Of a stretch of DNA of 1,013 nt, positions 1 to 820 are shown in pieces (within the stretch, counting starts at the first letter, position 1; every line of letters begins with the position of its first letter). Below the pieces are notes generated by a model. The model ran no database searches and had not been told where the DNA came from. It saw only the letters and a program-made list of their open reading frames with translations. The translations under genes were made by a program, and so were the position numbers. The stretch is from Naegleria gruberi (taxonomy: Eukaryota), in NCBI GenBank assembly GCA_000004985.1, contig GG739618.1; one strand, given 5' to 3'.

Positions 1-7
1 GTGAAAA

Positions 8-17
8 CGTAGCTACG
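8..17. repeat. Perfect 10-bp palindrome CGTAGCTACG
   Basis: Self-complementary 10-mer. Position 7 with 18 does not extend it. Confidence 0.5.
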
Positions 18-43
18 CGATACATTCATTGATTATGCAATTA

Positions 44-77
44 CGGAACCGTCTGAATCGCAGCCGTTCGGGAGTTG
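44..77 (+). repeat. R1 family copy A: 34-bp unit CGGAACCGTCTGAATCGCAGCCGTTCGGGAGTTG
   Basis: Matches 342-375 at 33/34 positions (only 49 C vs 347 T). Flanks diverge immediately on both sides (43 vs 341, 78 vs 376), so this is a discrete unit and not part of a long segmental duplication. It is followed directly by GGTACC (78-83). Confidence 0.85.
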
Positions 78-91
78 GGTACCTCAAAAAA

Positions 92-119
92 TTGATATTA
101 TTATATATCATTGTATAGT
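92..119 (+). promoter_or_regulatory. Candidate sigma70-type promoter: -35 TTGATA (92-97), 16-bp spacer, -10 TATAGT (114-119)
   Basis: The two hexamers match consensus at 5/6 and 5/6 with ideal spacing. Such matches are frequent by chance in AT-rich DNA. No downstream gene is evident. Confidence 0.2.
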
Positions 120-136
120 CAAATAACTATTATATC
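112..136 (+). repeat. Direct repeat module TGTATAGTC...ACTATTATATC, copy 1
   Basis: The 9-mer TGTATAGTC (112-120) recurs exactly at 976-984. After a 5-nt divergent block, ACTAT and TATATC-like sequence recur at the same offset (864 bp) with a 2-nt indel. The module overlaps the -10-like hexamer TATAGT (114-119). Confidence 0.5.
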
Positions 137-150
137 AAAAATGGCTAGAA

Positions 151-169
151 CCCAGCCGTTCAAAAGTTG
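151..169 (+). repeat. Degenerate partial R1 copy C (CCCAGCCGTTCAAAAGTTG)
   Basis: Aligns to the R1 3' half CGCAGCCGTTCGGGAGTTG (59-77) at 15/19, with CAGCCGTTC and AGTTG conserved. Its end runs into a perfect TTGACA hexamer (167-172). Confidence 0.4.
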
Positions 170-185
170 ACAATGATTTTTATGA

Positions 186-210
186 ATATATATCTATCTA
201 TTATCTATAT
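186..210. repeat. Imperfect microsatellite (TATC)n: ATATATATCTATCTATTATCTATAT
   Basis: TATCTA occurs at 191-196, 195-200 and 202-207. The tract is a low-complexity tetranucleotide repeat. Confidence 0.6.
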
Positions 211-252
211 AACCTTTTGTAAAGATTTTATTTTATAGAAATTGATTTTTGA

Positions 253-279
253 GCATGTTTCAAAAACCCAAAAACATGC
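253..279. other. Hairpin: 8-bp stem GCATGTTT/AAACATGC with an 11-nt loop CAAAAACCCAA
   Basis: Perfect 8-bp inverted repeat (253-260 / 272-279). There is no U-run immediately 3' on either strand, with TTTTT upstream on + and ACTTCGGG downstream. It is therefore not a canonical intrinsic terminator. Confidence 0.45.
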
Positions 280-341: not shown

Positions 342-375
342 CGGAATCGTCTGAATCGCAGCCGTTCGGGAGTTG
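342..375 (+). repeat. R1 family copy B: CGGAATCGTCTGAATCGCAGCCGTTCGGGAGTTG
   Basis: 33/34 identical to 44-77 at an offset of 298 bp. It contains the internal tandem GAATCG-TCT-GAATCG. Its 5' half forms the left arm of the 348-405 stem-loop. Confidence 0.85.
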
Positions 376-405
376 TCATTTACTTCGTAACTTGCGATTC
401 AGGCG
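348..405 (+). other. Imperfect stem-loop: 14-bp stem (348-361 with 392-405) and a 30-nt loop
   Basis: The stem has 12 Watson-Crick pairs plus two G·U-type positions (350/403 and 361/392) when read as RNA. At the DNA level it is a perfect 10-bp inverted repeat plus 2 flanking pairs. The loop (362-391) contains a small internal 4-bp hairpin, TTAC (380-383) with GTAA (387-390). An A-rich run (406-420) follows on the + strand, so this is not a canonical + strand terminator. Confidence 0.6.
391..405 (-). repeat. Inverted partial R1 copy (reverse complement CGCCTGAATCGCAAG)
   Basis: The reverse complement of 391-405 matches the R1 core CGTCTGAATCGCAGC (348-362) at 13/15. The 10-mer CTGAATCGCA (351-360) is perfectly complementary to TGCGATTCAG (393-402). 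Confidence 0.75.
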
Positions 406-490
406 AAAATAAATATCAAAATATGACACAACAGGGGTATTCATTTTTCACGACTTTTTTAGGGTGACTTATGGACCTGTTGTGTCATAT
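406..490 (-). terminator. Possible terminator-like element for a minus-strand transcript (15-bp stem followed by UUUGAUAUUUAUUUU)
   Basis: On the minus strand the 421-490 hairpin is followed directly by the reverse complement of 406-420, TTTGATATTTATTTT (11 of 15 T). The 40-nt loop is much larger than in canonical intrinsic terminators, so confidence is low. Confidence 0.15.
421..490. repeat. Perfect 15-bp inverted repeat ATATGACACAACAGG (421-435) / CCTGTTGTGTCATAT (476-490) with a 40-bp spacer
   Basis: The arms are exact reverse complements, and they end sharply (420/491 and 436/475 do not pair). The spacer contains the SD-like AGGGTG (461-466) and the ATG (471-473) of ORF1. The right arm encodes ORF1 codons 2-7. 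A perfect 15-bp inverted repeat is very unlikely by chance in 1 kb. Confidence 0.9.
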
Positions 491-692
491 AAACAATTTC
501 GTATTTTTTTTAGGAGGCCTGGAAAAAATTTTGGAACCAAAAAAAAAGAAAAAAAGAAAAATAATTATCGGATTGACTATAAACTCGAGGGGCCCAGGAA
601 CTAGCAATATTTTATTTTCCCGAAATTCGCAAGTAAAATTTTCGATCGAAGGTTTTGCACTAATATTATTTATTTACAATAAACTGGATTAA
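471..692 (+). CDS. Doubtful small ORF (73 aa), probably spurious
   Basis: ATG preceded by a weak SD-like AGGGTG (461-466). The product has a hydrophobic N-terminus (LLCHINNFVFFLGGL) and then KKKKKRK encoded by the A tract. It is low complexity, has no recognisable domain, and overlaps an inverted repeat, palindromes and R2. Confidence 0.12.
   Translation: MDLLCHINNFVFFLGGLEKILEPKKKKKRKIIIGLTINSRGPGTSNILFSRNSQVKFSIEGFALILFIYNKLD
539..561. repeat. Homopurine A tract A9-G-A7-G-A5
   Basis: 21 A plus 2 G over 23 nt. It encodes the KKKKKRK run of ORF1. Such tracts are prone to slippage and are typical of non-coding AT-rich spacers. Confidence 0.7.
641..650. repeat. Perfect 10-bp palindrome TTCGATCGAA (CGATCG core)
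   Basis: Self-complementary 10-mer. It shares the CGATCG core with the HIP1 octamer at 936-943. Confidence 0.5.
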
Positions 693-720
693 GAGAATCC
701 TCTGAATCGAAAGTCGGGGT
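671..720 (+). repeat. R2 degenerate direct repeat, copy 1 (contains AACTGGATTAA and TCTGAATCGAAAGTCGGGG)
   Basis: Aligns to 891-940 at a fixed offset of 220 bp with no gaps: 31/39 over 682-720 vs 902-940, including the perfect 11-mer AACTGGATTAA (682-692 = 902-912), plus 7/11 over 671-681. It shares the TCTGAATCG core with R1. Confidence 0.55.
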
Positions 721-749: not shown

Positions 750-762
750 TTTCAAAAGTATG

Positions 763-772
763 GTTGTGTTAT
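763..772. repeat. Degenerate extra copy of the 15-bp inverted-repeat right arm (GTTGTGTTAT vs GTTGTGTCAT at 479-488)
   Basis: 9/10 match. The downstream ...CAATAT echoes ...CATAT. This is weak. Confidence 0.25.
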
Positions 773-780
773 CAATATAA

Positions 781-795
781 CCCGACACTGTCGGG
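781..795. other. 15-bp palindrome CCCGACA-C-TGTCGGG (7-bp arms, 1-nt centre)
   Basis: CCCGACA (781-787) is the exact reverse complement of TGTCGGG (789-795). It is GC-rich within AT-rich flanks. This is the geometry of a dimeric DNA-binding-protein site, or a 6-bp stem with a 3-nt loop if transcribed. Confidence 0.6.
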
Positions 796-820
796 AACTA
801 ATACAGCCCTACTTTTGCTT

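Follow-up and report, generated by a model that had tools for sequence, protein, structure and literature searches.

The 1,013-nt window analysed here, meaning the whole stretch of DNA to which all positions given without a contig name refer, is part of the non-ribosomal spacer (NRS) of a circular extrachromosomal ribosomal DNA (rDNA) plasmid, or CERE, belonging to Naegleria gruberi or to a strain very close to it. Between positions 342 and 511 it contains two large adjacent inverted-repeat hairpins (hairpin 1 and hairpin 2), separated by a short A/T spacer and followed by a run of eight thymines (T8), and this twin-hairpin module is the subject of the present work. The window is 99.5% identical to positions 2260-1248 of contig L010 (L numbers designate the contigs compared), 97.8% identical to L006 (13554-12541) and 96.9% identical to L004 over the whole window. 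L005/L006 close into a circle of 13,799 bp, on which the small subunit (SSU) and large subunit (LSU) rRNA genes occupy L006 positions 1463-3482 and 3808-7263, respectively. L010, with the SSU gene at 3581-5600 and the end of the LSU gene at 9381, overlaps L007 to give a circle of about 13.4 kb. In the L010 placement as in the L006 placement the window is found on the same circle as a single 18S-5.8S-28S cistron and outside the rRNA genes. In L010 the distance from the module to the 5' end of the 18S gene, which lies downstream of it, is 1661-1830 nt; the rRNA genes are encoded on the opposite strand, the + strand of the window being antisense to rRNA.

The related contigs were collected in two ways. 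A metagenome scan with a 23-mer of the internal 34-nt repeat yielded three contigs, L004 among them, and more were found via homologues of a second His-Cys-box open reading frame (ORF), located after the 28S gene; the GC-rich ORF upstream of the 18S gene, used as a query for homologues, gave one cluster only. An Rfam scan revealed eukaryotic 18S, 5.8S and 28S rRNA genes on these contigs and, in L004, a GIR1 branching ribozyme that is located within the 18S gene next to an ORF for a His-Cys-box homing endonuclease, a combination characteristic of Naegleria rDNA. Species-level markers point the same way: the intron endonuclease of L004 is 82-89% identical to Naegleria intron endonucleases, and an ORF in the L010 spacer is identical at 343 of 344 positions to the N. 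gruberi GenBank protein AUH25140.1. A cyanobacterial origin, considered on account of an GCGATCGC site and of AT-rich non-coding DNA, was dropped in view of the rRNA genes on the related contigs.

No ORF in the window exceeds 73 aa, and an exact look-up of the 73-aa ORF gave no record. The tRNA/tmRNA scan of the window found none, and BLAST of the window against plasmids and phages returned no match. Viral contigs were scanned with the arms of hairpin 2, with an 18-mer and with the repeat as a 25-mer, and this produced nothing beyond the G+C-rich chance matches L024 and L025, and the scan of bacterial and archaeal genomes produced a single chance match, L001, a Bradymonadales contig of 62% G+C.

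The published N. gruberi CERE is 14.0-14.1 kb long and has an NRS of 8.2 kb with 36.7% G+C, laden with repeats from 34 bp upwards (PMC5805870). The present locus agrees with the described plasmids of the same species group (EGB MG699123, NEG-M AB298288) in several respects: the circle measures about 14 kb and has one rDNA cistron, the AT-rich spacer is full of such repeats, and the cistron is preceded, before the 18S gene, by a GC-rich ORF and followed, after the 28S gene, by a nuclease-like ORF of the His-Cys-box kind. The module belongs to a known class, the repeats and inverted repeats of the Naegleria CERE spacer. The CERE papers examined deal with repeat families and ORFs only; none of them describes the twin hairpins or the two short motifs, CTGAATCGCA and AGCCGTTCNNNAGTT, that are introduced below, and none gives a function to this part of the spacer.

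Table 1. Features of the 1,013-nt window
Feature	Position	Strand	Sequence	Remarks
Hairpin 1	347-406		arms TCGTCTGAATCGCA (347-360) / TGCGATTCAGGCGA (393-406)	loop 361-392; inverted-repeat and fold analysis
A/T spacer between hairpins	407-420		AAATAAATATCAAA	
Hairpin 2	421-490		arms ATATGACACAACAGG (421-435) / CCTGTTGTGTCATAT (476-490)	15/15 pairs perfect; loop 40 nt
T8 run	504-511			inside conserved block 497-532
34-nt composite repeat, copy 1	44-77	+		nearest to 18S gene; same place in three lineages
34-nt composite repeat, copy 2 (box and GCCGTTC element)	342-375	+		97% identical to 44-77
34-nt composite repeat, degenerate third copy	136-169	+	with CCCAGCCGTTCAAAAGTTG	conserved as far as N. 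andersoni-type L014
Conserved element	360-374	+	AGCCGTTCGGGAGTT	inside hairpin 1 loop; pattern AGCCGTTCNNNAGTT
Further box copy	702-711	+	CTGAATCGAA	within 48-nt repeat (670-716, also 890-936)
24-mer, last 8 nt of hairpin 2 3' arm and flank	483-506	+		inverted copy elsewhere in spacer
Conserved 36-nt block	497-532		TTTCGTATTTTTTTTAGGAGGCCTGGAAAAAATTTTGG	contains T8; 92% identical: L002 5793-5758, L003 1665-1700
Third strong hairpin	753-817			DNA -12.8 kcal/mol, z -4.3; RNA -26.8 kcal/mol for 741-820
Smaller hairpin	253-279			DNA fold

The two adjacent hairpins, the A/T spacer and the T8 run had been noticed in a preliminary description of the sequence, and all of them were recovered (Table 1), with the T8 run beginning 13 nt past the hairpin 2 stem. 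The pairing in hairpin 1 comprises 13 Watson-Crick pairs and one G·T pair around a loop of 32 nt. Strong structure on either strand, also claimed there, was borne out by RNA folding of 342-511, which gave -60.6 kcal/mol (z -7.9) for the + strand and -46.4 kcal/mol (z -6.2) for the - strand; in neither case did any of 200 shuffles equal the observed value. Folded as single-stranded DNA, hairpin 1 reached -14.6 kcal/mol (z -4.2) and hairpin 2 -15.7 kcal/mol (z -6.6). A perfect stem of 15 bp, as in hairpin 2, was seen in 0 of 2000 dinucleotide shuffles of the window, the longest being 14 bp, found twice. The perfect 10-bp core of hairpin 1 taken alone was equalled or exceeded in about 15% of shuffles, so the significance of hairpin 1 rests on the enrichment of the box described next and not on the length of its stem.

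Hairpin 1 turned out to be a convergent pair of a 10-nt box, CTGAATCGCA, present at 351-360 on the + strand and at 393-402 on the - strand. The second copy of the 34-nt composite repeat supplies its 5' arm and the 5' part of its loop, and exact matches of 27-29 nt to this repeat copy occur in L002, L003 and L017. Copies of the box were counted with at most one mismatch allowed and with 200 shuffles as the control. The window contains 4 against 0.03 expected, the 13,926-nt L006 contig contains 10 (9 in the 13,799-bp circle) against 0.58 expected, and L002 contains 12 against 0.33 expected; none of the shuffles reached the observed number in any of the three. This short box is repeated in the spacer far above chance. 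None of its copies is found in the rDNA; all are in the spacer, no more than 3-4.5 kb ahead of the 18S gene. The orientation is antisense to rRNA for 8 of the 9 copies in L006 and for 9 of the 12 in L002. The core of the box is kept while the flanks differ among copies, which indicates that the core has been retained beyond mere duplication of larger units.

The element in the hairpin 1 loop follows the pattern AGCCGTTCNNNAGTT. Four Naegleria lineages, among them that of the N. andersoni-type L014, carry 2-6 copies of it at each locus. Its copies are nearly always antisense to rRNA and have unrelated flanks. Apart from the site in the loop, it was found at 62-76 and 154-168 in the window, at 1887, 2093 and 2185 in L010, at 5241, 6146 and 6238 in L002, at 4747 and 5704 in L014, and at 2767 and 3820 in L017; it is absent from L011, L018 and L021. 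The element is a candidate conserved cis-acting site. Hairpin 1 is the sole place on the N. gruberi-type circle where a sense box faces an antisense box with the element between them.

The N. gruberi type can be aligned with L002 or L017 from the 18S gene back to about -1.07 kb, a stretch which is presumably the external transcribed spacer. Beyond it only islands align, including a block of 150 nt with the 34-nt repeat at -1.2 to -1.5 kb, and the twin hairpins are situated 300-500 nt upstream of this block. A conserved box copy at -1.2 to -1.4 kb is found just upstream of the region that can be aligned with the other lineages. L002 represents another Naegleria lineage, with a spacer otherwise largely unalignable with that of the N. 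gruberi type. It carries a homologous box pair at 5227-5241 and 5282-5296, with arms and element as in hairpin 1; the 40-nt loop has another 3' half, the orientation with respect to rRNA is reversed, and the position relative to other landmarks differs. L017 has a decayed hairpin 1 unit at 2859-2931, in which the degenerate box CTAAATCGTA faces CTGAATCCCC. By hand alignment 6 of the 10 pairs of its arms are Watson-Crick and 1 is a wobble pair, the remaining 3 of 10 being broken and uncompensated. When hairpin 1 of the three lineages was folded as an alignment, none of the 16 predicted pairs showed a compensatory change and the covariation term was unfavourable (+1.19).

In hairpin 1 the sequence of the box is conserved, whereas the pairing is not. 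Since the sequence has been kept without pairing, the hairpin is probably a consequence of two putative binding sites facing each other and not a selected RNA or cruciform stem. As a separate observation, the homologue of hairpin 1 in L002 overlaps a second perfect inverted repeat of 12 bp, AAAAATAAGGCC / GGCCTTATTTTT (5199-5296), and the arms follow each other in the order A-B-A'-B', so that the two stems are mutually exclusive.

Hairpin 2 has a much narrower distribution. It was found in four near-identical sequences of the N. gruberi group only and is absent from L002, L017, L014, L011 and L018; in L002 its place is taken by about 107 nt of unrelated, hairpin-free sequence. No other perfect hairpin of at least 15 bp occurs on the 13.8-kb circle, and no second full copy of hairpin 2 was detected in any compared locus. 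The strain differences within it fall at 454 and 471 only, both in the loop, and the lack of changes in the stem, against about 1.4 expected at 2.4% divergence, is not significant. The 24-mer formed by the end of its 3' arm and the flank has matches at L004 4260-4237, L006 10641-10664 and L007 3116-3139. This other spacer copy is inverted, occurs once and is not accompanied by a partner arm, which fits a local inverted duplication as the source of hairpin 2. The ends of hairpin 2 (AAA/ATAT...ATAT/AAA) show no clear target-site duplication.

The T8 run is part of a separate conserved block and not the tail of hairpin 2. The 36-nt block that contains it has the layout T8-AGGAGGCCTGG-A6-TTTT and is embedded in spacer that cannot be aligned between the lineages sharing it. 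In L002 and L003 no hairpin precedes the block.

Three interpretations had been offered in the preliminary description, namely a small structured non-coding RNA, a bidirectional terminator region between convergent transcription units and a composite repeat element. The last came closest. It applies to hairpin 1, which combines the 34-nt repeat with an inverted spacer box, and extends to hairpin 2 only insofar as 483-506 recurs inverted elsewhere in the spacer. The other two found no support, for reasons given below where they are weighed.

The reading favoured here, with a rough probability of 0.45, is that the boxes and the element are putative binding sites of a nucleolar factor, forming an array analogous to the polar RNA polymerase I (Pol I) terminator or fork-barrier boxes of other rDNA spacers, of which hairpin 1 would be a two-sided copy. 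That these putative sites have been selected is suggested because CTGAATCGCA and AGCCGTTCNNNAGTT were retained across lineages while the pairing was not, and base pairing itself is probably not the selected feature. The boxes and the element would act as double-stranded DNA sites for a sequence-specific nucleolar factor. The array, mostly in one orientation over the 3-4 kb ahead of the 18S gene, would stop Pol I running round the circle or, alternatively, stop replication forks before the promoter region, and the convergent boxes of hairpin 1 would be a barrier to approach from either side. Hairpin 2 would most likely be a young local inverted duplication, which at most might add cruciform-forming potential on the supercoiled plasmid.

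Polar boxes that terminate transcription or block forks are familiar from the rDNA spacers of mouse (Sal box/TTF-I), yeast (Reb1/Nsi1 sites) and Xenopus (T3 box, GACTTGC), and Rib2 is a further example. The Naegleria box resembles the TTF-I/Reb1-type arrays in being short, repeated many times in the spacer and strongly biased in orientation, in that a single well-conserved copy borders, on the upstream side, the stretch which can be aligned as far as the 18S gene, and in that the one sense-oriented copy is directly preceded by a T-rich stretch (sense strand ...ATTTTGATATTTATTTTCGCCTGAATCGCA). It differs from them in that no box is located near the 28S 3' end and in that its sequence bears no relation to that of the Sal box or of the Reb1 site. 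The likeness would be one of function, seen in repetition and polarity and not in the position after the 28S end. Read on the sense strand, most copies of the box have the sequence (G)ACTTGCGATTCAG, which contains what we take to be the Xenopus T3 heptamer, GACTTGC; this is a lead found post hoc and not evidence.

Several observations weigh against the box-array reading. The 3' end of the 28S gene, the usual place of primary Pol I terminators, has no CTGAATCGCA box within about 3.4 kb. The box is absent from the more distant Naegleria plasmids L011, L014, L018 and L021, so any system of factor and box would have to be clade-specific. Some copies are located inside larger duplicated units (the 48-nt repeats and those of about 2 kb), and part of the enrichment must therefore reflect duplication and not independent retention. 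As hairpin 2 is available from only four near-identical strains, constraint on it is not measurable.

Outside the module the spacer is a patchwork of repeats of 48, 65, 87 and 300 nt and of direct duplications of about 1.9-2.1 kb. In L005/L006 the block with the 34-nt repeat is duplicated in tandem with a period of 373 nt (L006 13280-13426 and 13653-13799, equivalent to window 2-264); this duplication, absent from L010 and from the window, resembles the promoter-region duplications of other rDNA spacers. The most AT-rich stretch of the window, with 22-25% G+C, extends roughly from 100 to 250. Between 916 and 941 there is a cluster of 7 of the 24 strain differences, where a degenerate box, TTTAAATCGCA, is present in the window and in L010 and a perfect one, TCTGAATCGCA, in L004 and L006; the cluster looks like gene conversion between repeat copies.

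Contrary to the preliminary description, which had seen nothing comparable elsewhere in the window, a third strong hairpin and a smaller one are present there (Table 1). The former has arms of 19 nt, 84% complementary, around the small palindrome CCCGACA-C-TGTCGGG. Palindromes upstream of the 18S gene were also noted in other species, at 1302-1519 in L011 (74-nt arms, 99%) and at 1218-1299 in L018 (39-nt arms, 85%). They are much larger than those of the module and unrelated to them; palindromes recur in this spacer without homology.

The nuclease-like ORF of the His-Cys-box family (PF05551) that follows the 28S gene is intact, and its product ends in an acidic tail. It is encoded at 6341-7408 (-) in L004, 7861-8916 (+) in L006, 9977-11011 (+) in L010, 1219-1983 (-) in L002 and 13419-13985 (-) in L017, and its identity between plasmids is 99%, 81% and 58%. 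The spacer His-Cys-box ORF was called 'likely a pseudogene' in the N. gruberi EGB paper. The 18S gene of L004 contains the twin-ribozyme group I intron with GIR1 and a homing endonuclease (13315-14242), which the 18S gene of L006 (1463-3482) lacks. The spacers of both are 97-98% identical to the window, so the intron shows a presence/absence polymorphism among very close plasmids.

The main rival to the box array is neutral turnover of repeats, which is considered unlikely, if less so than any of the explanations that follow it. In a plasmid maintained at about 4000 copies per cell, the spacer would be constantly reshuffled by duplication, inversion and gene conversion, and the two hairpins would have arisen by accident where pieces of repeats came to lie side by side, without any function of their own. 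The patchwork character of the spacer fits this well (duplications of about 1.9-2.1 kb, repeats of 48-300 nt and the 373-nt tandem duplication found in L006 and not in L010), as do the inverted occurrence of the 24-mer, the gene-conversion-like clustering of 7 substitutions at 916-941, the lack of hairpin 2 in sister lineages, the decay of hairpin 1 in L017 and the unrelated large palindromes of L011 and L018; the NRS has also been described as poorly conserved and repeat-laden (PMC7714845, PMC11008152). Against neutral turnover stand the retention of the 10-nt box core and the 15-nt element, with unrelated flanks, where the spacers are otherwise unalignable, and the box pair kept round the element in L002 despite the other loop and position. 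Distinctly less probable is that the module is the core of the single replication origin of the plasmid, with two cruciform-prone palindromes, an A/T spacer and an AT-rich flank serving as a module for initiator binding and unwinding. Such a layout recalls the origins of viruses and plasmids and those in the 5' spacer of the Tetrahymena rDNA minichromosome, where repeated type I elements lie in duplicated domains. Naegleria and Tetrahymena have in common an extrachromosomal rDNA that has, ahead of the promoter, short conserved elements in repeated copies and duplications of domains measuring a few hundred nt, the Naegleria counterpart being the spacings of 298 nt and 373 nt of the 34-nt repeat; they differ in that there is no sequence similarity and in that the Tetrahymena elements are A/T-rich targets of single-strand binding whereas the Naegleria boxes contain G+C. 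Complementarity between module and rRNA, as in the origin-RNA pairing of Tetrahymena, nowhere exceeds 9 nt. The module adjoins the most AT-rich stretch of the window, and hairpin 2 is the sole perfect palindrome of such size on the circle. Mapping has placed the one origin of the N. gruberi CERE in an NRS fragment of 2.1 kb, and a 636-bp fragment serves as 'the origin' in vectors (PMC13315211, PMC12845041), yet length alone gives a prior of only about 25% for the larger fragment and of about 8% for the smaller. Hairpin 2 is, moreover, not conserved in the closest other lineages, which must also replicate. The yeast consensus of autonomously replicating sequences (ARS) is absent from the window and from L006 and occurs at chance level elsewhere in N. 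gruberi (two matches, L007 1158 and 2868). Fainter still is the possibility that box pair, palindrome and A/T tract make up a centre of copy-number control, either as an origin core or as the target of the plasmid's own His-Cys-box nuclease-like protein. In the latter version the protein would bind or nick the boxes, pause forks and trigger amplification driven by recombination, comparable to FLP/FRT of the 2-micron plasmid or Fob1 at the yeast rDNA barrier. It was put forward because the box and the PF05551 ORF co-distribute, which is its sole support: the ORF is present in the spacers of the box-bearing lineages (N. gruberi group, L002 and L017), and no PF05551 was detected in the tested spacer ORFs of the box-less L011, L014, L018 and L021. 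This co-distribution is confounded by phylogeny.

A structured RNA derived from spacer transcripts is likewise very improbable, whether as an H/ACA-like double hairpin on the + strand, a small-RNA precursor or a promoter-associated RNA resembling mammalian pRNA. The predicted folds are very stable on both strands, and the + strand presents in order a hairpin, an ANANNA-type hinge AAATAA (407-412), a second hairpin and ACA (493-495), 2 nt after the second stem, on a nucleolar replicon, as in an H/ACA small nucleolar RNA (snoRNA). Both boxes are, however, expected by chance in an A/T-rich hinge, and the architecture differs from that of the H/ACA class. The lower stems consist of 14 and 15 uninterrupted pairs and reach the H box directly and the ACA after 2 nt; the predicted folds have no two-sided internal loop that could be a pseudouridylation pocket, and any pocket would be more than 16 nt from the H or ACA box, beyond the distance of 14-16 nt that defines H/ACA guides. 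An H/ACA snoRNA was rejected on this pocket geometry. Rfam, searched with the whole window on both strands at E values up to 10, gave sub-threshold noise only and no H/ACA match; the best was MIR8007 on 421-492, with 20.3 bits against a gathering threshold of 195 and an E value of 0.29, which runs through the hairpin 2 stem alone, and nothing else had an E value below 1. The missing covariation in hairpin 1, the broken arms in L017 and the restriction of hairpin 2 to one lineage also speak against a structured RNA, as does the module's complementarity to rDNA of no longer than 9 nt. Moreover, rRNA is the only documented transcript of the CERE (PMC11075319). The least probable explanations, by some way, are a bidirectional intrinsic terminator of the bacterial type and a miniature inverted-repeat transposable element (MITE), with hairpin 2 as a foldback element of 70 nt. 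Runs of T or A do follow the stems on both strands, and hairpin 2 has perfect terminal inverted repeats of 15 bp. The replicon, though, is eukaryotic and nucleolar, and no convergent genes flank the module in this rDNA spacer, where the window offers only ORFs of 73 aa or less. The hairpin 2 stem has 40% G+C and a loop of 40 nt, unlike a bacterial intrinsic terminator, and the T8 run, 13 nt away, belongs to the other conserved block. A mobile element is disfavoured by the lack of an evident target-site duplication and of a second full hairpin 2 copy in the compared loci, and the viral, bacterial/archaeal and metagenome scans led to CERE contigs or chance matches only.

All rRNA genes of Naegleria reside on about 4000 plasmid copies, and a working origin is wanted for N. 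fowleri transfection vectors (PMC13315211, PMC13398248). Taken alone, the two hairpins are probably nothing remarkable, an ordinary product of the repeat-rich spacer of an rDNA plasmid. What stands out are three short sequences conserved in an otherwise unalignable spacer, namely the box CTGAATCGCA, the element AGCCGTTCNNNAGTT and the 36-nt T8 block. By their conservation, these motifs may be regarded as concrete candidate cis-acting sites near the still-undefined promoter, terminator and origin of the plasmid, the sequences of which are undefined in pathogenic N. fowleri as well. The sequence itself became public in 2007/2018, and the use of the present analysis is a modest one: it offers three motifs to specialists who wish to make a vector of the CERE.

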